Source: a bacterium (GTDB lineage Bacteria; Patescibacteriota; Minisyncoccia; UBA6257; GWB1-50-10). Taken from it: a DNA stretch of 64,000 nt. The position numbers and the translations under genes were made by a program. The notes under the pieces are model-generated. The model did no database searches, was not told the DNA's origin, and saw only the letters and a list, made by a program, of their open reading frames with translations. Of the stretch, positions 7,152 through 49,900 are shown piece by piece. Within the stretch, counting starts at the first letter, position 1; every line of letters begins with the position of its first letter. Location: positions 4,990 to 68,989 of the forward strand of contig JAKAHD010000004.1 in the NCBI GenBank assembly GCA_021815205.1, read 5' to 3'.

Positions 7152-7196
7152 ACGAATTGGACCTATTGGACCAAATAAGACCAATAGGTCGTTACT

Positions 7197-7613
7197 ATGA
7201 AAAAAACAATCGCCTCACTTTTCTTCGCCCCGCTTCTCTTTCTTCTCACCTTTGGCATTTCACACGCGGCGCTCTTTGATATCTGGAAGGGAACCTCGAA
7301 CGGGGGCTGCAACGCGTCGGACTCCGGATGCAACTTATGCGACGCGGTAAAAGTTGTCGTAAATATCGTGAATGACCTTACAACCTTCGCAATCATCGCC
7401 GCGGTCGGCATGACGGTCTATGGCGCGATCGTGCTCATGATCTCCGGCGGCTCCGAGGAGCGGGTAAAGAAAGGAAAGAGCGTCATCTTCACTGCTGTGA
7501 CAGGGCTCGTGATCGTCCTTGCGGGGTGGCTTATTATAAACACCATCCTTCATTTCTTGACCGGCAGAGTTGACTTCCCGTGGGCGAACATACAATGCTA
7601 CAATGTGAAGTAA
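7197..7613 (+). CDS. TrbC/VirB2-like pilin paralog 1 (signal peptide ending AHA, then 2 TM helices)
   Basis: Signal peptide ...FGISHAA, a Cys-containing mature N-terminus, and two hydrophobic helices separated by GGSEERVKKGK. Same architecture as the next three genes. Confidence 0.65.
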   Translation: MKKTIASLFFAPLLFLLTFGISHAALFDIWKGTSNGGCNASDSGCNLCDAVKVVVNIVNDLTTFAIIAAVGMTVYGAIVLMISGGSEERVKKGKSVIFTAVTGLVIVLAGWLIINTILHFLTGRVDFPWANIQCYNVK

Positions 7614-7665
7614 CCAATAGGAATTACTGACTTGTGAGCCCAAGTGATCTTATCGGTCCCATAAT

Positions 7666-7700
7666 GTCATCCTGATCCGCCGATGAGGCGGAGAAGGATC
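7666..7700. repeat. Family A hairpin repeat GTCATCCTGATCCGCC-loop-GGCGGAGAAGGATC, copy 1
   Basis: Near-identical copies at 10524-10558 and 14246-14279 (inverted), plus a head-to-head pair inside rsmA at 22672-22746. Confidence 0.7.
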
Positions 7701-7715
7701 TATAGTAAAATAATC

Positions 7716-8126
7716 ATGTCCACTCTCAAAAAAATTTTATCCGCCTCACTTATCTCCGTTTTTGCTTCTGTGGCGATTGGAGTGTCCCTTGCGCACGCAC
7801 AAACCAGTTGCGATCCAACAATCCAGGCAAACTGTCCAACTCCTCCACCCAACTCTTCTATCGCCCTTTCGAATCCCTTGGGAACCAATAACTCGACTGT
7901 CGAAGATCTCCTCCACTCGATTGTGAACTGGCTCATCACGATCGCGACGCCGATCGCGGTCGGGATGATTTTAATAGGCGCGTTCCAGATGATCTTTGCG
8001 GGCGGGAATCCCGAACGTTTCGCGACGGGCAGAAAAACGATTCTTTACACCGCAATCGGGTATGCTATAATCGTTATAGGTTGGGGGATGGTCTCGATAA
8101 TCCGAGATATTCTGAACGTGCCATAA
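7716..8126 (+). CDS. TrbC/VirB2-like pilin paralog 2
   Basis: Signal peptide ...SLAHAQ, then TSCDPT..., two TM helices and a GGNPERFATGRK linker. Start placed at ATG 7716 because the track ORF start at 7683 lies inside repeat A. Confidence 0.65.
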   Translation: MSTLKKILSASLISVFASVAIGVSLAHAQTSCDPTIQANCPTPPPNSSIALSNPLGTNNSTVEDLLHSIVNWLITIATPIAVGMILIGAFQMIFAGGNPERFATGRKTILYTAIGYAIIVIGWGMVSIIRDILNVP

Positions 8127-8160
8127 CCCCCGAAAGGTCGAGAAGCAAAAAGTTTTTGCA

Positions 8161-8514
8161 ATGAATAAAACATTAAAAGTGGTAACCGCAGTGGCGCTCG
8201 CGGTAAGCATCCTTTCGCCTCTCGCCGCACTCGCGCAAGTACCAAACATCTCCGGAACGCCGCCGATTTCGAGCCTCTCCGGTGTACAAACGAGCCTCTA
8301 TGGAATCGTGAACTGGATTATCGTCATCTTCTGGGTCTTGACGGTACTCTTTCTTGTGTGGGCTGCAGTACTCTATCTCACAGGGGCAGGGAATGAAGAA
8401 AAAATTAAGGAGGCGAAGAATCGAGTCATCTACGCGATTATCGCGGCGGCGATTGCGCTTCTTGCGACTGGATTACAAAGTATTGTGACAAGTATTTTGA
8501 AGGGAAATCAATAA
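8161..8514 (+). CDS. TrbC/VirB2-like pilin paralog 3
   Basis: Signal peptide ...LAALAQ, two TM helices and a GAGNEEKIKEAKNR linker. Confidence 0.65.
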   Translation: MNKTLKVVTAVALAVSILSPLAALAQVPNISGTPPISSLSGVQTSLYGIVNWIIVIFWVLTVLFLVWAAVLYLTGAGNEEKIKEAKNRVIYAIIAAAIALLATGLQSIVTSILKGNQ

Positions 8515-8530
8515 GTTCTTCTTACCTAAA

Positions 8531-8560
8531 ACACGCGGTCCCTGGACCGCGTGTTTTTCG
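8531..8560 (+). terminator. Rho-independent terminator after pilin 3
   Basis: Stem ACACGCGGTCC/GGACCGCGTGT followed by TTTTT. Confidence 0.55.
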
Positions 8561-8592
8561 TCTTTGTCATCGAGTCCGTTTCAAGGCATTAT

Positions 8593-8620
8593 TGGTTTTT
8601 GAAATTGCTTCCAGTATAAT
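8593..8620 (+). promoter_or_regulatory. Candidate sigma70-type promoter for pilin 4 (-35 TTGGTT, 16-nt spacer, -10 TATAAT). The -10 element lies only ~8 nt from the ATG, so the transcript may be leaderless or short-leader.
   Basis: Perfect TATAAT at 8615-8620. ATG at 8628. Confidence 0.35.
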
Positions 8621-8627
8621 AGAACTA

Positions 8628-8960
8628 ATGAATTTATTTTCCTCTCTCGTTTCCACCGCTCACGCGCAAACCACATGCGACATCACCACAACTGCAAACT
8701 GCGTCTCGTCAGGACTCACCTCGCTCTCGCAGGTTGAGGGTTCCTTGAACCGGATTGTAGCATTCCTCTTTAATACGTTCTGGGTAGTCGCGGTTGGCAT
8801 GCTCATCTGGGCCGCGATTCTTTTTCTCACCGCCGGAGATAATAAAGAAACTATTGAAAAGGCGAAGAAGATGATTCTCTATGCGGTAATCGCGGCGGCG
8901 GCGGCGCTTCTTGCAAGCGGCATCTATTCCATTACGTATAATGTTCTCCAGGGGAAGTAA
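8628..8960 (+). CDS. TrbC/VirB2-like pilin paralog 4
   Basis: Signal peptide MNLFSSLVSTAHAQ, then TTCDITT..., two TM helices and a AGDNKETIEKAKK linker. Confidence 0.65.
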   Translation: MNLFSSLVSTAHAQTTCDITTTANCVSSGLTSLSQVEGSLNRIVAFLFNTFWVVAVGMLIWAAILFLTAGDNKETIEKAKKMILYAVIAAAAALLASGIYSITYNVLQGK

Positions 8961-8972
8961 CCAAACCCAGCA

Positions 8973-9008
8973 AAGGAGGTTGAACCTCCAGTGGAGGTTC
9001 AACCTCTA
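8973..9008. repeat. Family D palindromic repeat (AGGTTGAACCTCCAGTGGAGGTTCAACCT)
   Basis: Related hairpins occur in a tandem array at 18945-19090. Confidence 0.55.
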
Positions 9009-9024
9009 AGCCCTCCGCCTTAAG

Positions 9025-10491
9025 ATGACTGCCCGTCGCTCATATCTCATTCTTGCCATAATTCTCGCAATAAGCGCGGTCCTGCACTTCGTGCGTATCG
9101 GAACTCCCGCGCGCACGGTGTTCGACGAGGCATATTTTGCAACCTATGCCGCGAATGACGCCGCGCACATTCCTTATTTCGACATCCACCCGCCGCTCGG
9201 AAAATTTCTCTTTTCGATTCCGCTCTTCTTTGATAAGAGTGGTTTGAAAAATGCCACCTACATCGAAAATTCGCGGACATCCGACGGAATGTTTATTACG
9301 AAAGAGACGAACGTGCCATACGGCAACTTCCCGTATGTTATAGAGCGTTCGATAAGCGCCCTGTTCGGGCTTCTCCTTATTCTTGCGGTATTCCTTTTCG
9401 TGCGCGAGCTTGCGGGGAATCGCGCCGCGCTCCTTGCGGCATTTTTTGTCGCGCTCGAAAACGCGCTCCTCCTCGACACCCGCCTTATTCTGATGGACGG
9501 TATGTACCTCTCATTCGGCTTCCTCTCGCTCTATTTCTTCTTCAAATCCAAAAACCAAACCAACAAAAAATGGCAAGAGGAGAAGTCTGTGGATCTATTA
9601 TCGAAAGTGGCCAATACCACCAAGAAAGTGGGTAAGACTTGGGCTAGCGCCCCGGAGCGCACACTTTCTCGGTGGTATTGGCCACGCAATCTATTACTAT
9701 CCGCGATCTTCTTCGGCCTCGCCATAAGCATCAAGCTCACGGCGATCGTCTTCGTAGACCCGATCCTCGCATATCTCTTTTTCCAAAACGCCTTGCTGCG
9801 GGAGAAATTCCCCTGGAAGATGCTCTTGAAATTTTTTGGCGTTGCGCTCCTTGTGTTTCTCATCCTCCTCGTCGGGATAAGCAACATTCTCTTTACTCCC
9901 CAGGAGCAACTCTCTGTTGTCGGCTCGCTCTTTAATCTTCCGGCCGCGCTTCATGACCCCTCGCTCCTTAAATCAGTTTTCTACCAACTCTTCGTGGGAG
10001 TGTCTGGCTATGTTTCTGGCGGCGCAAACCCAATGATGAGTCCGTGGTACGCGTGGCCCTTCATGATGAAACCGATGCACTTTATGTACGGTCCTGCGGG
10101 AGGGTATCTCCCTGCTGGCACACAGATCACGCTTCTCGGCAATCCGTTCGTCTGGCTCCTCTCTACGTTCGCCGTACTGCTCGTCTTATGGAAAAGTGTG
10201 CTTATAATCCTGAAACGCCTTCCGTCGGCGGGGGAGCGTGACGTACCGATTGCGGTACTTTTCGGGGGCTATGTAATATCACTGATCCCGTTCTTCACGC
10301 TCGTGCACCGTGCGACCTATCTCTACCATTACTTCCCCTCCCTCCTCTTCGCGATTGCGCTCGCGGCGATCCTTGTGATGCGCGCGCTCGAAGGAAAAAC
10401 AAAACATGCGAAGCTACTCGCGCTTGGCGCGATAGGAATTCTCTCGGTGTGGGGCTTCATTCTCGTCGCCCCGTACACCTACGGATTATAA
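9025..10491 (+). CDS. Dolichyl-phosphate-mannose-protein mannosyltransferase-like glycosyltransferase (PMT/GT39 family), polytopic membrane protein
   Basis: N-terminal motif VFDEAYFATYA...DIHPPLGK, diagnostic of the PMT/ArnT (GT-C) family, and about 11 TM helices. Contains an in-frame family B repeat insertion at 9633-9668. Confidence 0.7.
   Translation: MTARRSYLILAIILAISAVLHFVRIGTPARTVFDEAYFATYAANDAAHIPYFDIHPPLGKFLFSIPLFFDKSGLKNATYIENSRTSDGMFITKETNVPYGNFPYVIERSISALFGLLLILAVFLFVRELAGNRAALLAAFFVALENALLLDTRLILMDGMYLSFGFLSLYFFFKSKNQTNKKWQEEKSVDLLSKVANTTKKVGKTWASAPERTLSRWYWPRNLLLSAIFFGLAISIKLTAIVFVDPILAYLFFQNALLREKFPWKMLLKFFGVALLVFLILLVGISNILFTPQEQLSVVGSLFNLPAALHDPSLLKSVFYQLFVGVSGYVSGGANPMMSPWYAWPFMMKPMHFMYGPAGGYLPAGTQITLLGNPFVWLLSTFAVLLVLWKSVLIILKRLPSAGERDVPIAVLFGGYVISLIPFFTLVHRATYLYHYFPSLLFAIALAAILVMRALEGKTKHAKLLALGAIGILSVWGFILVAPYTYGL
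9633..9668. repeat. Family B repeat (GACTTGGGCTAGCGCCCCGGAGCGCACACTTT) inserted in frame in the PMT gene. It encodes KTWASAPERTL.
   Basis: The same sequence sits in frame in rsmA (22971-23003, also translated as TWASAPERTL) and intergenically at 36382-36414 (inverted). Confidence 0.7.
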
Positions 10492-10780: not shown

Positions 10781-11608
10781 TCAATAATGATATTTGAGGT
10801 TGAGATCAACCTCACCGCTTACTGCCTTAACTTGATATTGGCAGTAGGTGGACCATTTCCCGTCTCTAAAACGGTACTCTGGTTTTATATCGGTGTACGT
10901 AGTGTCGTACACCATTTCCGCGCCCTTACCGCTATACCGGTAGGCTTTTATGTTCACCGGACCTGTAAGCCCGATGCCATATGTCGACCCCGAAGGCGGG
11001 GTGACGGTGGTCCATTCCCTATCAGTAAGATGATAGGAGATGGAATTTTCAGCGGGCGGTGTGGGAACCTGCTGGACCGGAGAAAAATCAGAGCGCTTAT
11101 CAAACGCCAACGCAAGACTATCGTAATATGCGCGTTTTGCACTTGATAATTCCGCCATCCTCTCAAGAGTTAGATTCGGCGTGTTCCTAATACCCACGAG
11201 TTCCTTATCTAACTTCGCCCTCAGAAGACTGTCATACCACATCCTCTGATCCTGCATCGAAACACTGCTTACTGTAGCGGGCATAATGGCACTAGCAAGC
11301 TTTCCGCGGTCCTGCTCCAAGCGGAGACTTGCCGCCTCCCTGATCTGCGCAAGTGGTTTGTAGGTCACTTCGTAGAGGATACCTACGCCAATCACAACCA
11401 CCGCAACAACAGCGAGGAGTTGATTTCCAGGGTGTCGTACACCACCCTCATCATGCGTACCAACGTGGTGCGCGAGCAGGTGATACACAACAGCGAGCGC
11501 GGCAACAACAACTATGTCGGCGATCTCTATGTCTACATCGCTCAACCTCCACCTGATAATAAGAATTGCAACTAAAAATATAAAACCAATAATTAATGAA
11601 CGTCTCAT
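10781..11608 (-). CDS. Hypothetical membrane protein (2 N-terminal TM helices; His-rich segment)
   Basis: Long ORF with TM helices. Last gene of a three-gene minus-strand operon. Confidence 0.45.
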   Translation of the reverse strand: MRRSLIIGFIFLVAILIIRWRLSDVDIEIADIVVVAALAVVYHLLAHHVGTHDEGGVRHPGNQLLAVVAVVVIGVGILYEVTYKPLAQIREAASLRLEQDRGKLASAIMPATVSSVSMQDQRMWYDSLLRAKLDKELVGIRNTPNLTLERMAELSSAKRAYYDSLALAFDKRSDFSPVQQVPTPPAENSISYHLTDREWTTVTPPSGSTYGIGLTGPVNIKAYRYSGKGAEMVYDTTYTDIKPEYRFRDGKWSTYCQYQVKAVSGEVDLNLKYHY

Positions 11609-11623
11609 TTCAGTCTCCTTTCA

Positions 11624-12154
11624 TTACGGTATAAATTTAGCAATGATCTTAGGACCAATCTCCACCAAAAATTCTGCGATTAACTCTGCCGGCAGAATTC
11701 TTTCTGTCCACTCCACAATTCGATCAATTGTGGTATGTCTATGCGGAGCCGTCACTGCAGGAGTAGCTCCTGCTAGTGCCGCTACTGGCGGTGCTGACGG
11801 GCGACGTCGAAGCGTCGCGGGTCTTTGAGCGATCGTCCTTTGAGCTATTCTCCATGAAATTCTTGCCTCATCCCAAAAACAGAACGGGGTGAGGACTATC
11901 CACGCTCCTAAAAACGAGAAAAACATATTCCACCAGAACCACGAGTGGTATGGGGGAACTAATTCTTTTGGGAGGAACCTTTCTTGAATTATATGCCTCT
12001 CAATAGGGCTCCCAAAGTTGAATGCGGCTACAATAAGGAGGATTATTGTTACAGTCCCCCATCCGAGCCAAATCCAATTATTAATTTCCGGTACCTTTAT
12101 CGCCCAGATCGCAACCACAACTAACAACGCGAGGGTTACAAAAATCTCTAACAT
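11624..12154 (-). CDS. Hypothetical membrane protein (3 TM helices)
   Basis: Hydrophobic helices and tight spacing to its neighbours. Confidence 0.45.
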   Translation of the reverse strand: MLEIFVTLALLVVVAIWAIKVPEINNWIWLGWGTVTIILLIVAAFNFGSPIERHIIQERFLPKELVPPYHSWFWWNMFFSFLGAWIVLTPFCFWDEARISWRIAQRTIAQRPATLRRRPSAPPVAALAGATPAVTAPHRHTTIDRIVEWTERILPAELIAEFLVEIGPKIIAKFIP

Positions 12155-12167
12155 TTTAACCTCCTAA

Positions 12168-12767
12168 TTAATATCCTTTAAACGTTCTCCGGAATTCCCC
12201 CTCGGGGAAACCGGTTACTAATATTGTTATTTCTTTTCTTTCTTTTTTGTCTAATGCAAATTCACGACGACAGTCGCCGTGAGCATCCGTCTTTGTGGAT
12301 ATGTGCTCCGACGCCGACTTATTCGAATAGACATAAATGTCTATCGGAACGTCAGCAAGATCTTTTCCGCTTTTTGTTGATGCAGAGATAATAATTTCCA
12401 CCTTGTCATCTAAAACAAGGGGAATTATTTTACATTCCGCTTCCTCGGTCGAGTCAGCGACTTTTGCAACAGCCCTCTGTTCTGAGACTGAAAACCCGGT
12501 ACCGATTAGCACCGCGCTAATCGTGTGTACTTTCCCCGCTTGCAATCCGAAGATGTCTTTTACGACTCTTCCGGTCGCGTTGAGCGGAGCGGGGGATCCA
12601 CTAGGAATCCCATCAAGTTCGAATTGGATCATACCAATCTGAACCGCGTTCTGGCCCCTCGTTACAACAGCGATAACTCGTTGTTTGTACGAAGTGCCGA
12701 TCAGCTCAGCATCAGTAGGAAATTCCAACCGCAATATTGTCGGTTGAGGTTGATTTTGATTTGCCAT
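12168..12767 (-). CDS. Hypothetical soluble protein
   Basis: 199-aa ORF with no TM helix. First gene of the operon. Confidence 0.4.
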   Translation of the reverse strand: MANQNQPQPTILRLEFPTDAELIGTSYKQRVIAVVTRGQNAVQIGMIQFELDGIPSGSPAPLNATGRVVKDIFGLQAGKVHTISAVLIGTGFSVSEQRAVAKVADSTEEAECKIIPLVLDDKVEIIISASTKSGKDLADVPIDIYVYSNKSASEHISTKTDAHGDCRREFALDKKERKEITILVTGFPEGEFRRTFKGY

Positions 12768-12941: not shown

Positions 12942-13028
12942 GCGGGGGTGGCGGAATCGGCAGACGCGCGGGATTTAGGATCCCGTGGGAGCAATCCCTT
13001 GAGAGTTCAAGTCTCTCTCCCCGCACCA
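12942..13028 (+). tRNA. tRNA-Leu (anticodon TAG), type II with long variable arm, CCA encoded
   Basis: Acceptor stem GCGGGGG/TCCCCGC, anticodon loop TTTAGGA, long variable arm, T-arm GAGTTCAAGTCTC, 3' CCA. 87 nt. Confidence 0.8.
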
Positions 13029-18944: not shown

Positions 18945-19090
18945 TCCCATGAGGTCCAACCTCCTATGGAGGTTGTTCTCCCATGAGGTCCTATGAGGTC
19001 CAACCTCCATAGGAGGTTGGACCTCATAGGTATATTCAGTAGGTTCTCGCTACACGAGGTCCAACCTCCTATGGAGGTTGGACCTCGTTA
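18945..19090. repeat. Tandem array of three family D hairpins (GAGGTCCAACCTCC(T)ATGGAGGTTGGACCTC), including a 36-bp perfect palindrome at 18994-19029
   Basis: Direct reading of the sequence. REP/BIME-like cluster. Confidence 0.65.
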
Positions 19091-25931: not shown

Positions 25932-27617
25932 ATGAAGCGGCCTCTGAAAAAAATCCTCATTCCCGCGGCGCTCCTTGCGCTCGTGTTCTTTGTGGTGCCG
26001 CATCTCGCGTATGCAATATGGCCGTTTCCTTCGCTGGGGGAGATTGTCTCGGGAGTGTTGCGGTTACTTGCGTATGTTCTAAATTTCATCTTCGGGACTC
26101 TCTTTATGCTCGGCGCGATGCTCGCGAAAGCGATACTCGATCTGAACTTCAATATCCTCACCACTCAGAACGGCCTGGTGCAGGTGGGGTGGAAAATCTC
26201 GCGCGACCTTGCAAATCTCGGCTTTGTGCTCCTCATTATTTTTATCGCGTTCGGCACCATCCTCCGCATCGAGAGTTACGGGGCGAAGAAGCTCCTTCCA
26301 ATGCTCATCGGGGCCGCGATCATCGTGAACTTCAGCTTGGCAATCGGCGGCGTATTCATCAACTTCTCGAACGTCCTCTCAAACTCGTTCATTACGAAGA
26401 TGGGGGATAATTTTACTACGTCCATCGCGGGCGCCTTCGGCGCCCAGCGGCTCCTCTTGCCCCCCGACAATCCGCCGCCGCCCGACCCCGCGGAGCAGGG
26501 AGGAGCGCTCGTCGGTTTTTCGAGTGTGGTTTTGATCGGCCTCGCAAACTTGATTTTTATCTCCGTCTTTACGCTTATTGCGGCGCTCGTGATGTTCCTT
26601 ATCGCCGGCATGCTCCTTATCCGGTACATCGTGCTCTCGTTTCTCCTTATCCTCGCCCCGATCACATGGCTCTTCTGGGCGTTTCCATCCCTGAAGCATC
26701 TCTTCTCCAAGTGGTGGAGCTCGTTTATCGAGTGGGTGTTCTTTGCGCCCGCGATGCTCTTCTTTGTCTACATCGCGGTGCTTTCGGCGCAAAATCTAAA
26801 GGATGTTATCCAGCCCACTGGCTCCGGGTTTAGCGGTATTTTGAGCACTGTGATGTCAACGGGAATGCAGATGGTGGTCCTCGCAGGAGTTCTTGTGGGC
26901 GGCGTGATCGCCGCGCAGAAGATGGGGATCGCGGGGGCGAGCGCGGCGGTAAACGCCGGAAAGAAGGTGGGGAAGAGCACGCAGAAATGGGCGGGGAAAC
27001 AAGCCGCGAAGGGCGCTTCGTACCCGCTTCGCACCGTAACCGGAAGAAAAACGGCGGAAAAACTTCAAACATTCGGCGCAAAGAGCGGGTTTATTGGAAG
27101 AACTCTTTCGGCGCCTCTGCGACAAATTGGTGCCGCGTTAAGTGACGCGCGACTTAAGAGTGAGGACTACACCACGAAGGGGGTAAGAAACACCGTACGC
27201 GGCAGGTCTATTGAGGAGAATGCGAGGCGCCTCCCGCACGCTTCATCTGAAGAGAAGAATGAGATATTAAAATTCTTCCGAGATATGATAGCCCACGGCA
27301 ACACAGCCCAAAAAGAAGCGGCTAATAAAGCGGTTAGAAATGCCCCGGAAAGGGTGCTCGATAAAGAAGCGCGCCTGAAATTTCTCTACGGCGGTGGGGG
27401 AGTGGCTGGCACACGTTATGGGATGCCTAAATTGAAAAATGAGGGGAGATTTTTTCCAAGAATTGAGTTTAGAAATACATTCGTAGAAGAAAATATGCCA
27501 GAGACAAAAGAGGCGGACAAACTTGAACAAGTAAAACGTCTCCTATTTGAGGAGGGGGGTGGGGCCCCTGCTCCAGGCGGTACCGCACCTACCGGCGGAG
27601 GGAGCAACTCTCATTAG
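25932..27617 (+). CDS. VirB6/TrbL-like polytopic membrane protein with a hydrophilic C-terminal tail
   Basis: At least 7 predicted TM helices in the first ~330 aa, followed by a charged tail. Sits beside VirB3-like and VirB4 genes. Assignment is by architecture and context only. Confidence 0.5.
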   Translation: MKRPLKKILIPAALLALVFFVVPHLAYAIWPFPSLGEIVSGVLRLLAYVLNFIFGTLFMLGAMLAKAILDLNFNILTTQNGLVQVGWKISRDLANLGFVLLIIFIAFGTILRIESYGAKKLLPMLIGAAIIVNFSLAIGGVFINFSNVLSNSFITKMGDNFTTSIAGAFGAQRLLLPPDNPPPPDPAEQGGALVGFSSVVLIGLANLIFISVFTLIAALVMFLIAGMLLIRYIVLSFLLILAPITWLFWAFPSLKHLFSKWWSSFIEWVFFAPAMLFFVYIAVLSAQNLKDVIQPTGSGFSGILSTVMSTGMQMVVLAGVLVGGVIAAQKMGIAGASAAVNAGKKVGKSTQKWAGKQAAKGASYPLRTVTGRKTAEKLQTFGAKSGFIGRTLSAPLRQIGAALSDARLKSEDYTTKGVRNTVRGRSIEENARRLPHASSEEKNEILKFFRDMIAHGNTAQKEAANKAVRNAPERVLDKEARLKFLYGGGGVAGTRYGMPKLKNEGRFFPRIEFRNTFVEENMPETKEADKLEQVKRLLFEEGGGAPAPGGTAPTGGGSNSH

Positions 27618-27629
27618 TAATCGCTTATT

Positions 27630-29243
27630 ATGCCAAACGAAGAACGTGAAAACTTATACTGGATTCCCATCCTCGACGATTCCGTCTGGGAGCCGCTTCA
27701 GAAAAAAAACTATGCCGACGCCGAGCTTGCACTCGGAAGCATACTTGAATCCCTTTCCCCCCACGAATGGAATGTGGTGTTTTGGGCGGCGCTTATAGAA
27801 GGGTTCCCGATTGTGCGCGGAGAGCTCACCGAAAAAGAGTGGCGGGAGAACGTGCAGCCGATGCTCGCAAGATTGGTGCTTCAAATCGCCTCCGGAGAAG
27901 CTACCGCCAATATATTCAGCGAGCTGGTCTCATATCCCGACACCGCACAAAAATTCGAAACGCTTCTCATTTACACCTCAACAACCGCGGATGTCGAGAG
28001 TGAAATAAAAATCAAAAAAATAAATCGTCCGCTCTATACCTTCCTTATTGCAAGTCCTGCTCAAGAACTCTTTTCTCCTTTATCGCCATACCGTATCGCA
28101 AGGATTTCTTCGGTGGTGGTGAGCCAGCGCTACACCACAATCCCAGAAAAACTCAAAGATGAACTCTTCTCCTACGCAACCGCCGAAGATATTGCGAGGA
28201 TCGCGGGGGAACAACATCTTTCTCCTGAAAAGACGAATGTGATCGCGACACTTACCGGAAGGGTGCTCCTTGGATTTCTCCACCTTGAGGATATGAAAAA
28301 AGAAATTCAAAAAACACTTGATTTGGATCCGCGGCTTACGGACGCGGTCTATCAGGCGCTCGACAAAAAAATATTTTCTGAATTCAAGGACGAAATCCAC
28401 GAGGTGTATGATCCCGTAATTATCCAAACAAAACCGTCGGAAACCGGGTCCTCGCCGGAACCCGAAGAAAAAACAATCACCTTCGCGGGACTCGAGAAAG
28501 ACGCCCTAGGACCGGAAGAAAACGTGCCGGTGCGTATCTCGAGCGCTCCAATAGAAGAAAAGAAGGAAGACAACCCGTTCGTGCTTCAAGAAGAGAAGCC
28601 GCTTGAGACGGCGGGGGGCACGATGACGGGGAAAAAGTTTTCATTTTCGCTCGGCGGATTCTTCAAACCAAAGAAGAAGGACGAATCCGTCTCCCGGGAA
28701 CCCGTAAAGGCAAAGATAGAGCTTTTTGGCGGAGACAAAGACGAGAAAAGAGTAATTCATTATAGTGAGCTCCGCACGCCGCTCGAGGCGAGAGAAGAGG
28801 ACATCTTCAAGCTAAAAGAAGAACAGCCGATTAGTCCGATAGGACAGATTGGTCCTATCGGTCCAATTGGTCAAATTGGTCCAATTGGTTCTGTTGGTAG
28901 TCCTACCAGTCCTATTAGTCCAATTGATTCCAATTCCGCTTCCGCCCCTTCTCCGCTCACGCCTCCATCTACGAAGAAATCCCCCTGGGCGTTCAAGTGG
29001 TTCGGCTCCCAGGCGCCCGCCCGCGATGAGCAGAAAGCGGTTCCTGAAAATAAGACCGTGGGTGAAACATCGTTCGAGGAAAAACCGGAAGAGAAAAAAG
29101 AAAAAGAACCAGTTAGTCCTATCAGTCAAATTGGTCCAATCAATCCTATAAGTCCAATAGGTTCAATCAGTCCTATCACAGACGAACCCAAGAACCCCAC
29201 CATTGAGGGGAATATTGTGGACTTACGCACGCTCAAAAAATAA
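27630..29243 (+). CDS. Hypothetical soluble protein with Gly-X-Y / PIS tandem repeats near the C-terminus
   Basis: No TM helix. Contains GQIGPIGPIGQIGPIGSVGSP, encoded by 9-bp tandem repeats. Confidence 0.45.
   Translation: MPNEERENLYWIPILDDSVWEPLQKKNYADAELALGSILESLSPHEWNVVFWAALIEGFPIVRGELTEKEWRENVQPMLARLVLQIASGEATANIFSELVSYPDTAQKFETLLIYTSTTADVESEIKIKKINRPLYTFLIASPAQELFSPLSPYRIARISSVVVSQRYTTIPEKLKDELFSYATAEDIARIAGEQHLSPEKTNVIATLTGRVLLGFLHLEDMKKEIQKTLDLDPRLTDAVYQALDKKIFSEFKDEIHEVYDPVIIQTKPSETGSSPEPEEKTITFAGLEKDALGPEENVPVRISSAPIEEKKEDNPFVLQEEKPLETAGGTMTGKKFSFSLGGFFKPKKKDESVSREPVKAKIELFGGDKDEKRVIHYSELRTPLEAREEDIFKLKEEQPISPIGQIGPIGPIGQIGPIGSVGSPTSPISPIDSNSASAPSPLTPPSTKKSPWAFKWFGSQAPARDEQKAVPENKTVGETSFEEKPEEKKEKEPVSPISQIGPINPISPIGSISPITDEPKNPTIEGNIVDLRTLKK
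28829..28935. repeat. 9-bp tandem repeat tract (ATYGGTCMA)n inside the CDS
   Basis: agtccgataggacagattggtcctatcggtccaattggtcaaattggtccaattggttctgttggtagtcct. A second tract lies at 29110-29180. Confidence 0.7.
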
Positions 29244-29734
29244 TGGAATTCCAAGTACCCCAGTTTATAGAACAGAAGCCGAAAATTGTGGGGCCCCTCA
29301 CACTCTCGCAATTTTTTTACCTCGCGGGCGCCGCGATTGTGAGCTTCGTCTCCTTCAGGATATTCACTTTTTTCCTGTGGCTTCTCATCACGCTCATCTT
29401 CGGCGCCGTAGGCGTTACGCTTGCATTCGTGAAGATAAACGGACAGCCATTCCCGAAACTCATCGGCTCCGCGTTCAATTACTTCTGGGGGCCGCGCGTC
29501 TATACCTGGCAGAGAAAAGCGCCCCAAACCACCATCGATCTCCAGAAGATCGAGGAGATTGAGAACCTGCGGGAGCATATGCGCGTACAAGAGCGGCTTA
29601 AAAACATGGCGCTCTCCGTGATGACGGGGAAGTTCTTCCTTAAAAAACCGGAAACGGAAGACCAAAACCGGTATGAGACGGTGGTGTATCTTACGGGAGA
29701 GCGGAAGCAGGCGAAGAGAGTGGATTACTCATAA
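29243..29734 (+). CDS. VirB3/PrgI-like small membrane protein (2 TM)
   Basis: IEQKPKIVGPLTLSQFFYLAGAAIVSF followed by a second TM helix. Lies immediately upstream of VirB4. Its start overlaps the previous stop (TAATG). Confidence 0.45.
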   Translation: MEFQVPQFIEQKPKIVGPLTLSQFFYLAGAAIVSFVSFRIFTFFLWLLITLIFGAVGVTLAFVKINGQPFPKLIGSAFNYFWGPRVYTWQRKAPQTTIDLQKIEEIENLREHMRVQERLKNMALSVMTGKFFLKKPETEDQNRYETVVYLTGERKQAKRVDYS

Positions 29735-29973
29735 TGAGAATGGAAAGAACTCGGAACTTTACACGACTAAAAAGTGTGCGCTCCGGGGCAACAAGCCCCA
29801 AGTCTTATTCCGACGAGCGGGGAGTGAAATAGGGGCATGCTCACATATTTCAGCCGAACGATGTCGGAAGAAGGACGCAGTCTTTCACCCACTTTTTAGT
29901 CGTTAAAGTTCCTCGACGTTATTTTTGAGATTATTCATAATTCGTATAAAATAGAGGTAGAGGTACTACATAC

Positions 29974-30615
29974 ATGGCGGAACCGACGCAAGCATCGCAA
30001 CAATTTGTAAAGATAAAAGAGATTCGAGACGGCATTCTCTATATGAAGGGTGGCGGCCTGAGGCAGGTGCTTATGGTGAGCGGCATCAACTTTGAGCTGA
30101 AATCTGAGGGCGAGCAGGCGACGATCTTGGGCACGTTCCAGAAGTTCTTGAACTCGCTCGATTTCGGCGTCCAGTTCTTCATCCATTCGCGGAAGACGAA
30201 TATTGAAAAATATCTCGCAAACATGGAGGAGTGTAAGAAGGGGGAGACGAATGAGCTTCTGCGCGTTCAGATCGAGGAGTACATCAACTTCATTCGCACG
30301 TTCGTCGAGGAGAACGCCATCATCAACAAAAGTTTCTTTATCGTAGTGCCCTACGATCCCGTCTCGCTTACCGCGGGGAAGGGCGGCTTTTTGGACGGGC
30401 TGTTCGGCAAGAAATCAAGCATATCGAAAGAACAGCAGAAGCAGGCAACGGACGCGGAGAACGTCGCCCAACTCAAGGAGCGCGCGACCCAGGTCATCGA
30501 GGGGCTCGCGGTTATGGATCTCCGCACGGTGCCTTTGGAGGACGAGGATCTCGTCGAGTTGTTCTACAACCTCTACAACCCGAAGCTTGTCGATAAAAAA
30601 GGAGTTACCGCATGA
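29974..30615 (+). CDS. virB4: VirB4/TrbE-family ATPase, N-terminal domain, encoded as a separate 213-aa gene
   Basis: Directly precedes the Walker-A-containing VirB4 part and overlaps it by ATGA. The combined length of 796 aa equals a typical VirB4. Confidence 0.55.
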   Translation: MAEPTQASQQFVKIKEIRDGILYMKGGGLRQVLMVSGINFELKSEGEQATILGTFQKFLNSLDFGVQFFIHSRKTNIEKYLANMEECKKGETNELLRVQIEEYINFIRTFVEENAIINKSFFIVVPYDPVSLTAGKGGFLDGLFGKKSSISKEQQKQATDAENVAQLKERATQVIEGLAVMDLRTVPLEDEDLVELFYNLYNPKLVDKKGVTA

Positions 30616-32363
30616 AAATAAATATTCCCAAAGCATACAAACCCGGAAGCGAAGACCTCCCGAACATCATCGCGCCCGCGGGGCTCGAAGTGAACGCGAA
30701 CTACCTGAAGCTCGGCGATTATTACGCGAAGACCTTTTTCGTATTCACGTATCCGCGTTATCTTTCCGCGGGGTGGTTCTCGGATATTATCAACTTACCC
30801 GCCATGATGGATATCTCGATTGTGATGTACCCGATGGATACCGCGCTCGCGCTCCGAAATCTCCGGAAGAAGGTGGCACAGATCGAGGCGGAGATCGGCG
30901 AGAAACAAGAGAAGGGGCTCGTGCGCGACCCCATGCTCGAGACCGCCTATGAGGATGTGGAAACGCTCCGCGATGCGCTCCAGCAGGCGCGTGAGCGTCT
31001 CTTCGAGGTAGGGGCGTATATCACGATCTATGCCGCAACCCTGAACGACCTCTCAGACCTCGAAAATAAGATTACGAACGCCTTGGAGAGCAAGCTGGTA
31101 TACATAAAACCCTCACTCTTTCGGCAAAGCGAGGGGTTGAACTCCGTTTTCCCGATTGCCTCGGATGAGCTTGCGGTCCGCACGCCCTTGAATACCGGCC
31201 CCGCCTCATCACTCTTCCCTTTTATCTCGCCCGACCTCACCTCCGAGAAAGGCATTCTCTATGGGGTGAATATGCACAATAACAGCTTGATTATCTTCGA
31301 CCGTTACTCGCTCGAAAACGCGAATATGACGATTTTTGCGAAGTCGGGTTCCGGGAAATCATACGCGGCAAAGCTCCAGATCCTCCGCTCGATGATGCTT
31401 GGCACGAACGTGATTGTGATTGACCCCGAGAACGAGTACGAGAACCTCGCAAATGCGATCGGCGGGAGTTACTTCAAAATTTCGCTTACTTCGCCGAGCC
31501 ACATCAACCCGTTCGATATTCCGATTATTCCCGAGGGAGACGAGCCGGCGGATGTATTTAAGTCGCACGTCCTCAATCTCACGGGGCTCATAAAACTCAT
31601 GCTCGGCGAGATTACTCCGGAAGAGGAATCGCTCCTTGACCGGGCAATCACCGAGACCTACGCCTCGCGCGATATCAACGCGGAGAACTTCGGCACCATG
31701 AAGGAGTTCAACCCGCCGCTCCTCGAGGACTTCCAGACGATTCTTATGAACACCGAAGGGGGGCGCGGGATCGGCCAGCGTCTTGATAAGTTCACCCACG
31801 GATCGTATTCCGGCTTCACAAACGCCCCGACGAATGTTGATATCAAGAACCGCCTCATCGTTTTCTCGATCCGCGACCTTGAGGAAGAGCTTCGCCCGAT
31901 CGCGATGTATATCATTCTGAATTTTGTGTGGAACATCATCCGCTCGGAACTGCGGCAACGAATGCTTGTGATCGATGAGGCGTGGCTTATGATGAAACAT
32001 AAGGACAGTGCCTCGTTCCTCTTCGGCCTCGTGAAGCGCGCGCGGAAATATTATCTCGGCGTCGTCACGATCACGCAGGATGTGGACGACTTCCTGAAAT
32101 CGGAGTATGGGAAGCCGATTATTACAAACTCCTCCCTCCAGTTGCTTCTGAAACAATCGCCAAGCTCGATTGATATTCTTACCAAAGCGTTCAGCCTCAC
32201 GGAGGGTGAAGCGGCGTTTCTCTTGCAGGCGGGGATAGGAGAAGGACTCTTCTTCGCGGGGCTGAAGCATGTTGCAATCAAGATCATTCCTTCGTACACG
32301 GAAGATCAGATTATTACCACAAACCCAGAACAAATCATGGAGATTAAGGGGCTCCAGCGATAA
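30612..32363 (+). CDS. virB4: VirB4/TrbE-family conjugal-transfer ATPase, C-terminal ATPase domain
   Basis: Walker A FAKSGSGKSYAAK, Walker B MLVIDEAWLMM and C-terminal VirB4 motifs (GVVTITQDVDD). 583 aa. Confidence 0.75.
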   Translation: MKINIPKAYKPGSEDLPNIIAPAGLEVNANYLKLGDYYAKTFFVFTYPRYLSAGWFSDIINLPAMMDISIVMYPMDTALALRNLRKKVAQIEAEIGEKQEKGLVRDPMLETAYEDVETLRDALQQARERLFEVGAYITIYAATLNDLSDLENKITNALESKLVYIKPSLFRQSEGLNSVFPIASDELAVRTPLNTGPASSLFPFISPDLTSEKGILYGVNMHNNSLIIFDRYSLENANMTIFAKSGSGKSYAAKLQILRSMMLGTNVIVIDPENEYENLANAIGGSYFKISLTSPSHINPFDIPIIPEGDEPADVFKSHVLNLTGLIKLMLGEITPEEESLLDRAITETYASRDINAENFGTMKEFNPPLLEDFQTILMNTEGGRGIGQRLDKFTHGSYSGFTNAPTNVDIKNRLIVFSIRDLEEELRPIAMYIILNFVWNIIRSELRQRMLVIDEAWLMMKHKDSASFLFGLVKRARKYYLGVVTITQDVDDFLKSEYGKPIITNSSLQLLLKQSPSSIDILTKAFSLTEGEAAFLLQAGIGEGLFFAGLKHVAIKIIPSYTEDQIITTNPEQIMEIKGLQR

Positions 32364-32366
32364 ACT

Positions 32367-32807
32367 ATGGCGGAACTCTCAAGGGCCGCCTCGGGGGCGG
32401 CATCAAAAACAAAAGGAAGCACGGGAAAGAGCGCCCCTGCACGTTCCGACGAGCCCATATCCGAAGTTACAAACAAGTTCGAGCTCTCCGAGATCGTGGT
32501 GGGAACAATCTACACTTTTACAACCGACGGTCTCTGCGCACTGCTTGATATCTTCACATTAGAATCATTTGCGGTAGCGAGTTGGGTGATACGAAACGGC
32601 GTCGCGGGCACCATCTGGATGTGGTTTTACGCGAAAAAAGATCCTCATGTAAAAAAAGCAGGACGACTCATTTTCAAAGGATTTGCGAACGCCACGCCGC
32701 TCTTTATTAACACGATTATGTTTCTCATTGAGGTATATATTCACAACCACCCCGAGAAGTTCGCGGCACTCGAGAAGGTCGCGGGAGCTACGGGCGGTAA
32801 GGCATAA
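32367..32807 (+). CDS. Hypothetical small membrane protein
   Basis: Two hydrophobic segments. Operon-internal position. Confidence 0.4.
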   Translation: MAELSRAASGAASKTKGSTGKSAPARSDEPISEVTNKFELSEIVVGTIYTFTTDGLCALLDIFTLESFAVASWVIRNGVAGTIWMWFYAKKDPHVKKAGRLIFKGFANATPLFINTIMFLIEVYIHNHPEKFAALEKVAGATGGKA

Positions 32808-32823
32808 GGTATAATATAAGAAA

Positions 32824-33522
32824 ATGGATTTTAGAAAATCAATCGGACTTATTGGATTAATGGGACTTATTGGTCTTATTGGCGTGTCTCACTCTTTTGC
32901 GCAAACCGCGCCTTCCGCCGCATCAAACGTCCAAGTTGTCATCACCTGGCAGGCGAATAATTACTTTCCGGCGGGATTCGAGGGAAAGTCGCTTCCCGCG
33001 CCTTATGCGCAGGTGGTCGCCTCCGTCGAACTTCTCGAAGACAATAAACTTGCCGATCTTTCTCAAGCCACAGTGAACTGGTTTGTGGACGACAAGTTCC
33101 AAAAATCGGGGGTGGGACTTAAAACATTTTCCTTCTATACCCAGCAGGAGGATTCCGGCTACGTGTCCGTGCGCGCGGTAATTGAGCTCCAGGGCGGGGG
33201 GGGCGCACGCGGCTCGCTTCAGATTCCCATAGTGGCGCCTACTTTGGTACTCTCCTACGCCGCTCCTTCAAACTCCGTAGCCGCAAACTCAAGCGTAACG
33301 CTCGCCGCAATCCCGTTCTCTTTTAACGTCTCATCCCCAAGCGATCTCACGTTCTTCTGGACCATCAATGGGGCTCAATCGAATGTTTCAGGAAACACCG
33401 TGAAGCTCCAACTCGGCGCCCCGACGCCCCTTGACCGGCTGCTCCAGATTTCGGTGAGCGCGCAGAATAACAAGAACCCGCTCGAGATCGGAAAAACAGC
33501 CGCAGCATTTCCCATACAATAA
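32824..33522 (+). CDS. Hypothetical secreted protein
   Basis: Signal peptide IGLIGLMGLIGLIGVSHSFAQ, encoded by the same 9-bp repeat in inverse orientation. Confidence 0.45.
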   Translation: MDFRKSIGLIGLMGLIGLIGVSHSFAQTAPSAASNVQVVITWQANNYFPAGFEGKSLPAPYAQVVASVELLEDNKLADLSQATVNWFVDDKFQKSGVGLKTFSFYTQQEDSGYVSVRAVIELQGGGGARGSLQIPIVAPTLVLSYAAPSNSVAANSSVTLAAIPFSFNVSSPSDLTFFWTINGAQSNVSGNTVKLQLGAPTPLDRLLQISVSAQNNKNPLEIGKTAAAFPIQ

Positions 33523-33544
33523 CAGAACATTAAAGAAAGATGTT

Positions 33545-35113
33545 ATGTTAAAAACAAAACTGAAAAATCTCACGCTAATCGTTTTCGTGTTCCTCGCGTT
33601 TTTTGCGGTTACCGCGATCAATACCGCCTACGCACAAAAGACCTTAAACCCGCCGCAACCGATCGTGAATGTGAATTTTCCGTGCCCGAGCCCCGGTTGC
33701 CAACCAATAACTTCCGACACCCAAGTTACCACCTATATTCAAACTTTCTACCAGTTCAGTTTATGGATCGGTGGCGCTTTGGCGCTTGGGATGATCGTCG
33801 CGGGAGGTATCGTGCGGATCCTATCCGCGGGAAGCCCTGACAAGATTCGCGAGGCGAACGATATGATCACCTCGGCGATCTTCGGTCTCCTCCTCCTTTT
33901 CGGCGCCTATCTTGTCCTCAACACTATAAATCCCCAGCTCACACTCTTGAAACTCCCTGCCGCGGGAGAAGCATCAACCGAAAAAGCGCAACTCACGGAA
34001 AAACTCTCCGACACAAACTGCGTCGCGCCGGGCGTCGAGGACTTCGCAAACATCCCTGTGTGGAACGGGGTAAAACAAATAAGCGTGTTGCATTGCATTT
34101 ACAGGCAAGAAGTTGGACACAATCCAGTTTCTAATGGTTTTGGGTTTGTGGCCGGCGATTACTATGCCGAAGATTTTGCGATTCCGAATGGTTCAATGGT
34201 GTGGAAATATCCGTATTTTACTGGAACGAGCCCCACCGCTACCGCGAAGTGTTTGGTGTACGCCTACAAGGAACCGGGGGTTGGCAAAACGGTGCAGATG
34301 ACTCCGCTCAATTCGAGTTTGAAGTTATGCACTCCGCTATATCAGAATTTGGGGGGGCCTGTATGTAAGGAGTGGCAGTTCTCCGCGAGAGAATCAAAAA
34401 CAAAGGATTTCAAAAACCCCGATCAGTTTGTTACCCGCACCTTCACCGATAAGACATTTCAAAGGGATCCTTTGAGTCCTCCAACCGTTCCTTCTTTCGC
34501 AAGGGACTACTGGGGAGATAATCCTATTTATTACTGCATAAACCCGGATGGGAGTGAAAATAAGAACACCTACTGCGCAAACGAAAACGCCGCTCCTTTC
34601 TGGACGTGCACGGTAGCGGAAAATCCGCCGTCAATACAGAACAAGGATACACCCATAGTGAGTCCGTGCGCCGACTGCGAAGACCTCCCCCCCAACTTTT
34701 CTGTGAACGGCAATCCGTGCGACAAGACGATTGATAACACCACCCTTAACTCCCACAAAGGGTACTGCAGACTTAATAAAAAGTTTACAGCCGATCTCGA
34801 TAAATTCAATAAGCTGATGCAAGCGGCAAAAAACTCTTCTGGGGGAACGGGAATTTCCTGGCAAATCACCGAGGCGTGGCCGAATACGGTGTATCACTCG
34901 TCCCCCTGCCACTACGACGGGCAGTGCGCCGACATCGCGCTCACCGGAAACGTAACGTGTGCGGACGTACAGAAAACAATGGATATTTTGAAATCGAGTG
35001 CGGGGGGCGGATTTTTTAGATCCCTCAACGAGTACGCTCGGCCGCCGCTTGTGTGTAATGCAGAGGGAAACTATAAAACCACCACAGGCAACAACATCCA
35101 TGTGGAGTGGTGA
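33545..35113 (+). CDS. Pilin-like (TrbC/VirB2-type) N-terminal module fused to a ~390-aa Cys-rich extracellular domain. Putative tip or adhesin pilin.
   Basis: Signal peptide ...NTAYAQ, a Cys/Pro-rich stretch, and two TM helices flanking AGSPDKIREAND (same layout as pilins 1-4). The large domain that follows has more than 20 Cys. Confidence 0.5.
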   Translation: MLKTKLKNLTLIVFVFLAFFAVTAINTAYAQKTLNPPQPIVNVNFPCPSPGCQPITSDTQVTTYIQTFYQFSLWIGGALALGMIVAGGIVRILSAGSPDKIREANDMITSAIFGLLLLFGAYLVLNTINPQLTLLKLPAAGEASTEKAQLTEKLSDTNCVAPGVEDFANIPVWNGVKQISVLHCIYRQEVGHNPVSNGFGFVAGDYYAEDFAIPNGSMVWKYPYFTGTSPTATAKCLVYAYKEPGVGKTVQMTPLNSSLKLCTPLYQNLGGPVCKEWQFSARESKTKDFKNPDQFVTRTFTDKTFQRDPLSPPTVPSFARDYWGDNPIYYCINPDGSENKNTYCANENAAPFWTCTVAENPPSIQNKDTPIVSPCADCEDLPPNFSVNGNPCDKTIDNTTLNSHKGYCRLNKKFTADLDKFNKLMQAAKNSSGGTGISWQITEAWPNTVYHSSPCHYDGQCADIALTGNVTCADVQKTMDILKSSAGGGFFRSLNEYARPPLVCNAEGNYKTTTGNNIHVEW

Positions 35114-49889: not shown

Positions 49890-49900
49890 TTTTATTTTTT
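49869..49900 (+). terminator. Rho-independent terminator (GCGAACTC-TTAT-GAGTTCGC + T9)
   Basis: Perfect 8-bp GC-rich stem followed by TTTTATTTTTT. Confidence 0.6.

Follow-up and report, generated by a model that had tools for sequence, protein, structure and literature searches.

What would a bacterium from a group that lives attached to other cells build from four divergent pilin-like genes in a row, and why would a protein glycosyltransferase gene follow them? The question is raised by positions 7197 to 10491 of a 64-kb stretch of DNA (hereafter the window; all positions and strands refer to its forward strand) taken from contig JAKAHD010000004.1, positions 4,990 to 68,989, of assembly GCA_021815205.1, a member of the Patescibacteriota (Minisyncoccia; UBA6257; GWB1-50-10). 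Here, four small paralogs (P1 to P4) and a GT39 protein O-mannosyltransferase (PMT) all lie on the + strand. Much of bacterial diversity falls within the Patescibacteria, which live attached to the cells of a host. In a Saccharibacterium, Wang et al. 2023 (PMC10633639) described predicted pilins that form an essential series within the type IV secretion system (T4SS) cluster, and no system of this kind other than the Patescibacteria T4SS with its pilin array has been shown to be required for growth on a host. Using PF18895 and PF04956 on 3,035 Patescibacteria genomes, Quiñonero-Coronel et al. 2025 counted 441 arrays, each with 2-11 pilin genes that are ~25% identical to one another, and suggested that they serve antigenic variation or host-range adaptation (PMC12102498), a proposal repeated in a 2025 review.

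The locus is a gyrA-proximal array of fixed VirB2-like paralogs, led by a solute-binding protein (SBP) and trailed by a PMT. With a probability of roughly one in two, we read it as a chromosomal module near the origin that encodes a surface structure of a Paceibacteria-type Patescibacterium and whose two units would provide O-mannosylated VirB2-like pilins used by a T4SS. Tandem VirB2-like arrays in Patescibacteria are already published; what is new here is the fixed orthology of the paralogs, the PMT linkage, the SBP partner and the division into two units. The words ‘mannosyl’, ‘solute’, ‘substrate-binding’ and ‘gyrA’ do not occur in the text of PMC12102498, nor ‘glycosyl’ and ‘mannosyl’ in that of PMC10633639, and the open-access literature yielded no papers linking Patescibacteria or Parcubacteria with O-mannosylation or dolichyl-phosphate-mannose.

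Results

Four tandem genes of one pilin family

P1 (7197-7613, 138 amino acids (aa)), P2 (7716-8126, 136 aa), P3 (8161-8514, 117 aa) and P4 (8628-8960, 110 aa) follow one another on the + strand. A preliminary description of this DNA gave the lengths of P1 and P3 correctly and those of P2 and P4 as 137 and 111 aa, one residue too long in each case. The public gene call has P4 at 110 aa as well and uses an alternative P2 start at 7683, which extends that open reading frame (ORF) to 147 aa. When scored against the Pfam family PF18895 (T4SS_pilin; gathering cut-off 26.6 bits), P2, P3 and P4 reach 43.7, 45.0 and 36.1 bits, and the precomputed Pfam assignments on the public gene calls likewise place PF18895 on P2-P4. 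P1 scores 25.0 bits, 1.6 short of the cut-off, and 9/9 of its orthologs match the family with a best E of 3e-9. Matches to the TrbC/VirB2 family PF04956 (cut-off 27.9 bits) are sub-threshold for P2 (23.4 bits) and P3 (21.0 bits) and absent for P1 and P4; many P2 orthologs elsewhere carry both PF18895 and PF04956, and several of them are named ‘pilin’ by NCBI. Taken together, the PF18895 matches, the sub-threshold TrbC/VirB2 similarity and the P2 orthologs with both families support the preliminary view of four tandem VirB2-like paralogs.

That all four share one architecture, as was also proposed at that stage, is seen in the alignments, which resolve a signal peptide with an A-x-A end (SHA, AHA, ALA and AHA across the four pilins), an exposed N-terminal segment, a first transmembrane helix (TM1), a G-G/N-x-E...K loop and a second transmembrane helix (TM2). 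The AlphaFold model of P3 (predicted local distance difference test, pLDDT, 77.5) agrees with this layout, with a helix at residues 2-24, a low-confidence 14-residue coil at 25-38 and helices at 39-74 and 79-113 that form a hairpin around a 4-residue turn.

Within this common plan each pilin type has its own invariant motifs. P1 combines a Cys-rich N-terminus with a conserved C-terminal tail: CN...C-x-x-C-D lies near the mature N-terminus and FPWAxxQC at the C-terminus, which places Cys on both exposed ends. Its invariant residues include C45, C48 and C134, and 304 cluster representatives match it at E<=1e-10. In P2, a variable, exposed linker rich in Pro, Ser, Asn and Thr leads up to an NPL motif, and the P2 of locus L009 repeats NPPNSG four times. 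P3, for which 29 orthologs were found, carries AP(I/V)(T/S)SL directly ahead of TM1. The P3-like P4 carries (I/L)TS(L/I/V), is 43% identical to P3 and has a signal peptide that is very short or missing. Some database proteins (P0168, with 1115 aa and 20 matched stretches, P0165, P0178 and P0190) contain many tandem pilin domains per polypeptide and could be polyproteins or gene-calling fusions of arrays.

Paralog divergence is old and fixed by position

Do the four paralogs differ because they are interchangeable and diverging, or because each has a place of its own? The relatives of the window PMT were scanned with one genome per species, which gave 79 loci whose ORFs were searched with a hidden Markov model (HMM) built from the window pilins. 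The closest relatives of the window are metagenome-assembled genomes labelled Minisyncoccia, Paceibacterota or Parcubacteria. Comparison of nine four-gene arrays places the best match at the same position in 72/72, 72/72, 71/72 and 68/72 cases for P1 to P4, respectively. Orthologs are 50-75% identical across genomes, compared with 21-43% between paralogs, and the genomes with this ortholog identity have PMTs that are only 40-60% identical. Over ~95 unique arrays, almost all are composed of P1, P2 and then 1-3 copies of the P3/P4 type. The position-wise orthology, with orthologs far more conserved than paralogs, indicates that paralog divergence is ancient and functionally fixed, and the composition of the arrays indicates that P4 is a lineage-specific duplicate of P3. 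The alignments thus favour four pilins that would be old, non-redundant subunits, and they contradict antigenic diversification.

It was as antigenic diversification that the preliminary description had read the divergence of the paralogs, and this part of it fails, given that the pilins have position-for-position orthologs that are more conserved across genomes than the paralogs are among themselves. In its general form the idea is that an array exists to vary antigenicity or host range through major pilins that diverge fast and can replace one another, as put forward by Quiñonero-Coronel 2025 for Patescibacteria arrays at large (PMC12102498). The low identity between paralogs, the varying number of P3/P4-type copies and the variability of the exposed linkers, of which the L009 repeat is an example, are in line with such a role. 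The strict position-wise orthology at identities above those of the accompanying PMTs, the presence of P1 and P2 as distinct types in almost all surveyed arrays and the type-specific invariant motifs argue against it, such that we regard it as highly improbable for this locus. For P1 and P2 it is largely refuted.

Two predicted transcription units

An intrinsic terminator is located after P3 (8528-8557, + strand), where a 13-bp stem is followed by a T-run (-21.5 kcal/mol, z = -4.8). A strong terminator is found directly after P3 in 12/12 distinct four-gene loci (16 before duplicate removal). Downstream of it, a perfect TATAAT -10 box (8615-8620, + strand) lies 7 nt before the P4 ATG, and TATAAT, TACAAT or TATTAT is present 6-11 nt ahead of the P4 ATG in the same 12/12 loci. 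A near-consensus promoter had been assigned to P4 beforehand. Its -10 element beside the start codon is upheld by conservation in all four-gene relatives, but the -35 element is poor (TTGGTT, 3/6) and ‘near-consensus’ overstates the match. A generic promoter scan of the region returned promoter-like sites at the level expected from shuffled sequence and did not list the P4 site, the -35 being weak; it is the comparative alignment, not the generic scan, that makes the -10 element convincing.

The conserved position of the -10 element, 6-11 nt before the ATG, points to a leaderless or near-leaderless P4 transcript. Since the gap between P4 and the PMT gene is <10 nt or an overlap in the relatives, these two genes would form one unit. 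At the other end of the array, the gap between the SBP gene and P1 is 7-10 nt or an overlap in the relatives and 45 nt in the window, and for this reason SBP-P1-P2-P3 is likely the first transcription unit. The terminator implies, on the predicted signals, that the array is split into two units, SBP-P1-P2-P3 and a leaderless or near-leaderless P4-PMT.

The P4-PMT spacer of the window contains an extra 64 nt that is absent in the relatives and holds a palindromic hairpin (8975-9007, + strand; -27.4 kcal/mol, z = -5.3). This hairpin lacks a T-run and probably does not act as a terminator. It is a copy of the repeated GGAGGTTGRACCTC element, a repetitive extragenic palindromic (REP)-like element with 9 matches against 0.16 expected, which recurs at 18950-19087 in paired copies forming strong hairpins. 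The best promoter-like match of the region lies elsewhere, in the 3' end of P2 and ~90 nt ahead of the P3 start (8044-8071, + strand; TTTACA-16-TATAAT with an upstream TG, 11/12). It overlaps the conserved coding motif ILYTAIGYAII and may be coincidental.

A GT39 enzyme whose clade accompanies pilin arrays

The gene 3' of the pilins (9025-10491, + strand; 488 aa) encodes, as first described, a GT39 PMT: it matches PF02366 with 79.0 bits and PF16192 (PMT_4TMC) with 82.8 bits, both above their cut-offs, and is of the bacterial type with no MIR domain. Homology extends to solved Pmt chains (9i5k, 4e-15; 6p25). The catalytic D34-E35 pair, located in the first extracytoplasmic loop, is invariant in 30 homologs and aligns with the DE of 9i5k (vFDEayF vs vFDEvhF). 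An identical protein is on record in the 74.7-kb ENA metagenome contig ERZ27237587:k141_1324413.

Is this enzyme beside the pilins by rule or by accident? Clustering of 80 PMTs on identity distances by the unweighted pair group method with arithmetic mean (UPGMA) resolved two groups, cluster A, which includes the window enzyme, and cluster B. A pilin array is found in the flank of 25/27 informative species loci of cluster A and of 3/45 of cluster B (Fisher p = 7e-14), and in 21 cluster A loci the array is directly upstream of the PMT gene on the same strand. Conservation of the neighbourhood of the enzyme, which the preliminary description had named as a check, is therefore confirmed by co-occurrence across genomes. 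A reverse search of metagenome contigs starting from P2 recovered 11 arrays followed by a PMT gene and 44 arrays with room for one but no PMT in the flank. Together with the cluster A linkage, these counts indicate that this PMT clade goes with arrays and that arrays also exist without a PMT.

The association takes more than one form. Locus L066 has the PMT gene within the array, and L056 has the two in convergent orientation. In the Kerfeldbacteria locus L161 (JAZDNT010000004.1, 5847-20363), which has no gyrA backbone, an SBP-pilin array is placed among glycosyltransferase genes, its neighbours being an NTP_transferase (sugar nucleotidyltransferase), a DUF2079 protein, two PMT_2 proteins, one GT2 and two GT87/MptA-like enzymes; this is an independent association of pilin arrays with lipid-linked-sugar glycosyltransferases. 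In the three-gene arrays of L011, L013, L020-L022 and L140, a tRNA-Leu(UAG) gene stands between the last pilin and the PMT gene; in the window the same tRNA gene (12942-13028) follows the PMT gene and a set of variable genes. This difference in placement indicates local rearrangement around a retained PMT gene.

The pilins themselves differ with the presence of the enzyme. For a segment of 28 aa that ends 8 residues into the pilin domain, and thus covers the exposed stretch ahead of TM1, the Ser plus Thr fraction reaches 0.224 where a PMT is linked (27 loci) and 0.154 where it is missing (30 loci; p = 4e-6, a value that ignores the phylogenetic kinship of the loci), against a background of 0.113. 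The enrichment is strongest in the P3/P4 type.

The solute-binding protein upstream of the array

The gene upstream of P1 (5844-7151, + strand) encodes a membrane-anchored SBP_bac_1 protein (Pfam, 91 bits) of the oligosaccharide-type solute-binding class; among solved structures, it is closest to SBPs that bind oligosaccharides (6rjy, E 1e-15). It is the most constant partner of the arrays, being directly upstream in 56/59 unique arrays with enough upstream sequence. In practically every locus its gene is flanked by gyrA and the pilins, and it stays with the array where gyrA has moved and in the Kerfeldbacteria locus. No permease (BPD_transp) or ATPase (ABC_tran) gene was found in the window. 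A 10-bp inverted repeat (GACCTATTGG ... CCAATAGGTC) lies at 7160-7190 in the spacer between the SBP gene and P1, a spacer that relatives nearly lack.

Could the SBP-like protein, and not the pilins, be the substrate of the PMT at the level of the operon? The classic substrates of actinobacterial PMTs include binding proteins and lipoproteins, and the PstS binding protein, from which the analogy is drawn, is O-mannosylated by a Streptomyces Pmt; moreover, SBP, pilins and PMT form one conserved block. The linker that follows the membrane anchor of the window protein (GLQKKSADPHQAKATL) is, however, not Ser/Thr-rich, the SBP gene is equally upstream of arrays with no PMT, and the PMT gene, at the end of the block opposite to the SBP gene, is coupled physically and transcriptionally to P4. 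On balance, the SBP in place of the pilins would be a very unlikely substrate.

T4SS genes of the window

T4SS machinery is encoded at 25932-35113 (+ strand), adjoining yidC, dnaA and dnaN, and was identified with Pfam. It comprises a VirB6/TrbL-like protein (25932-27617, + strand, a weak Pfam match), a PrgI/VirB3-like protein (29243-29734, + strand), a VirB4-like ATPase (30612-32363, + strand) and a protein of 522 aa that carries a PF18895 pilin domain at its N-terminus (33545-35113, + strand), the last matched by our own pilin HMM. These genes lie ~15-25 kb from the array, the nearest (25932) being ~15 kb past the end of the module at 10491. Arrays in the sense of PMC12102498 have at least two tandem PF18895/PF04956 genes of low mutual identity in a genome with VirB4, and the window agrees with this in its four tandem genes at 21-43% identity and its VirB4-like ATPase. 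When the pilin HMM was run over the ORFs of the window, only 33545-35113 was matched beyond the array and no small pilin was found in the T4SS cluster. With no pilin-domain ORF other than this fusion, small pilins would most obviously come from the array.

Genes of similar design, with an N-terminal pilin domain and an extracellular extension of 150-400 aa, were labelled PILfus in L019, L027, L028, L097, L106, L139, L150 and L161. In the window the fusion belongs to the T4SS cluster, and in other genomes it takes the P1 position directly after the SBP gene. Such pilin-domain fusions could be tip or adhesin subunits.

A proposed module and its alternatives

How would these parts work together? 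In the reading proposed above, the first unit would encode the membrane-anchored oligosaccharide-type SBP with P1, P2 and P3 and end at the strong terminator, and the second would be a leaderless transcript for the P3-derived P4 and the GT39 PMT. The pilins would be exported by Sec, cleaved after AxA and held in the membrane as helix-loop-helix hairpins with both ends outside the cell. As they emerge, the PMT would use polyprenol-phosphate-mannose as donor to O-mannosylate Ser and Thr residues of the disordered N-terminal segments, with APITSL in P3, LTSL in P4 and the Pro/Ser/Asn/Thr linker of P2 as candidate sites. The VirB4/VirB6/VirB3-like T4SS beside dnaA would then assemble the four non-redundant subunits into a heteromeric structure, either a pilus or a channel, that has major and minor components and makes contact with the host cell. 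Pilin O-mannosylation is the step that we infer from the comparison of loci and sequences, which gives it real support.

Several observations weigh against this reading. Glycosylation is undescribed for any bacterial conjugative pilus (Beltran et al. 2023, PMC9905601), and no polyprenol-phosphate-mannose synthase (Ppm1/DPM1-type GT2) was found among the ORFs of at least 150 aa in the window. VirB4, VirB6 and PrgI homologs were absent within 6-10 kb of ~150 related arrays, so that the link between array and T4SS is based on family membership and the Saccharibacteria precedent. A Foldseek comparison of the P3 model with the PDB gave no significant match and no pilin (best E 0.46), and profiles of the P1 and P2 orthogroups, when run against PDB sequences, likewise matched no solved conjugative pilin; a two-helix hairpin is too simple for such tools. 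The gene order gyrA-SBP-pilins-(PMT)-xer-rpsO-NYN-pnp is kept over >15 kb in many genomes, and part of the PMT-array adjacency could be inherited synteny rather than selected. In three-gene arrays the pilins are followed by a terminator, and often by a tRNA-Leu gene as well, before the PMT gene is reached, which indicates that there the PMT gene is not co-transcribed with P1-P3. The 44 arrays with no PMT in the flank, and the kinship of the loci behind the Ser/Thr comparison, belong on the same side.

Some of these points would be expected if the PMT were a general O-mannosyltransferase of the secretome that stands beside the array only through an unusually syntenic origin-proximal backbone, the pilins being no special substrates. 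Actinobacterial Pmt enzymes are general, and 42/45 cluster B PMTs are unlinked to arrays; the long conserved gene order, the PMT gene as a separate unit behind a terminator and a tRNA gene in three-gene arrays and the 44 arrays with no adjacent PMT all count in favour of this explanation. Yet a hot-spot of variable genes adjoins the PMT gene, and the PMT gene still directly follows the last pilin in 21/27 loci. The association also recurs outside the backbone, in other arrangements and with other glycosyltransferase families (L066, L056 and L161), P4 and the PMT are translationally close behind a conserved leaderless promoter common to both, and the Ser/Thr enrichment of the pilin N-termini tracks PMT linkage. 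On this evidence a purely general enzyme is unlikely.

A different objection is that ‘pilin’ is only a family label, and that the SBP, P1, P2 and P3 form another membrane complex for SBP-dependent uptake, sensing or organisation of the envelope. This explanation draws on the SBP as the most constant partner, which is linked to the array even where gyrA is rearranged and in Kerfeldbacteria, on the lack of a T4SS gene in the flanks of any array and of a match to solved pilins, and on the cautious wording of PMC10633639 and PMC12857230, which speak only of ‘predicted’ or ‘potential’ pili. The missing permease and ATPase partners for the SBP in the window are counted on this side as well. It is opposed by the PF18895 matches and TrbC/VirB2 profile similarity, by the Saccharibacteria precedent, in which the T4SS cluster contains homologous arrays and the two are jointly essential (PMC10633639), and by the T4SS cluster of the window, which carries a pilin-domain fusion of the same family. 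Moreover, hairpins with two transmembrane helices are a poor basis for a solute channel. A complex of this other kind is quite unlikely, and the reading as a two-unit module of O-mannosylated pilins is the one that we carry forward.

Surroundings of the module

Between the PMT gene or last pilin and the tRNA-Leu/Xer recombinase genes lies a slot (10781-12767 in the window, with three minus-strand genes) that holds 0-4 minus-strand genes across L002-L160. The slot genes differ almost wholly between related genomes and often encode TM-anchored or Band_7-like proteins. The slot resembles a hot-spot at which surface or membrane cargo is exchanged by recombination. As candidate conserved partners of the array, the three minus-strand genes of the window have homologs only in L002 and L003. 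Carriage of the array as mobile-element cargo, considered in view of an integrase and tRNA-Leu at 12.9-14.2 kb, was rejected because the Xer-type recombinase forms a conserved housekeeping backbone with rpsO, NYN, pnp, gyrA and ftsH.

Farther from the array, a PilB/T2SSE-type ATPase (49899-51572, - strand) corresponds to the motor of a type IV pilus or type II secretion system, and directly after a Mur ligase gene comes an ORF (57782-58789, + strand) whose ART-PolyVal ADP-ribosyltransferase domain is of a toxin-like kind known from polyvalent phage or conjugative proteins. A Wzy_C membrane protein (61403-62713, + strand) belongs to the O-antigen ligase/PglL-like family, which O-glycosylates type IV pilins in other bacteria.

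Discussion

The fixed and distinct paralogs point to a heteromeric structure, and the dedicated-looking PMT predicts glycosylated VirB2-type pilins, which, if true, would be unprecedented for bacterial conjugative-type pili. With an orphan sugar-type SBP as the most faithful neighbour of the array, the appendage may be connected with glycans of the host or with the capture of nutrients. For metatranscriptomes, the two conserved signals, the terminator and the leaderless promoter, yield a clear prediction. We also consider a bolder proposal, which is possible but doubtful: SBP-P1-P2-P3(-P4)-PMT would encode the first bacterial conjugation-type (VirB2-like) filament that is heteropolymeric, with 3-4 fixed subunits that cannot stand in for one another, O-mannosylated by a dedicated GT39 enzyme whose gene is co-transcribed with that of one subunit, and functionally coupled to an orphan oligosaccharide-binding protein. 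It would constitute a glycan-decorated, glycan-sensing contact or import device with which an ultrasmall epibiont engages its host, of T4SS origin and encoded and regulated apart from the T4SS motor.

How does the locus compare with systems that are already known? With the published Patescibacteria arrays it shares tandem PF18895/PF04956 genes, the range of 2-11 genes per array at ~25% mutual identity, a chromosomal location and a T4SS that has no relaxase and whose genes lie beside dnaA. It differs in that the window array lies outside the T4SS cluster, ~15-25 kb away and behind gyrA, and in that the order P1-P2-P3(-P4) is fixed, with SBP_bac_1 before it in 56/59 arrays and a GT39 PMT after it.

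The TrbC/VirB2 pilins, among them VirB2 of the T-pilus, TrbC of RP4 and TraA of F, are likewise small, with a signal peptide, two hydrophobic helices and a short charged loop. In contrast to these, the window pilins score below the family cut-off and have no match among solved pilins; there are four paralogs where those systems have one major pilin, the genes are not adjacent to virB3/virB4 and the host is monoderm. With Cys residues at both of its exposed ends, P1 could perhaps have its termini joined through a disulfide, in place of the cyclisation known for TrbC, VirB2 and TrhA.

The window enzyme resembles the Pmt proteins of Mycobacterium, Streptomyces and Corynebacterium and eukaryotic PMT1/2 in its PMT and PMT_4TMC domains and in the DE motif of loop 1, and like the bacterial Pmt enzymes it has no MIR domain. 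It would likewise be expected to act on Ser and Thr of unfolded segments in proteins undergoing Sec translocation. It is set apart by its origin in a Patescibacterium, by a clade that is almost always directly 3' of a pilin array and by predicted co-transcription with a pilin paralog in four-gene arrays.

The nearest parallel for a pilin gene that adjoins, or is co-transcribed with, the gene for a membrane glycosyltransferase is given by the O-glycosylated type IV pilins of Pseudomonas and Neisseria, where PilO/TfpO and PglL modify the exposed part of the pilin. The pilin folds of the two systems are unrelated, one being type IV and the other VirB2-like, and so are the enzymes contrasted: Wzy_C/PglL oligosaccharyltransferases transfer a glycan en bloc in those systems, whereas the GT39 enzyme found here would transfer single mannose residues.

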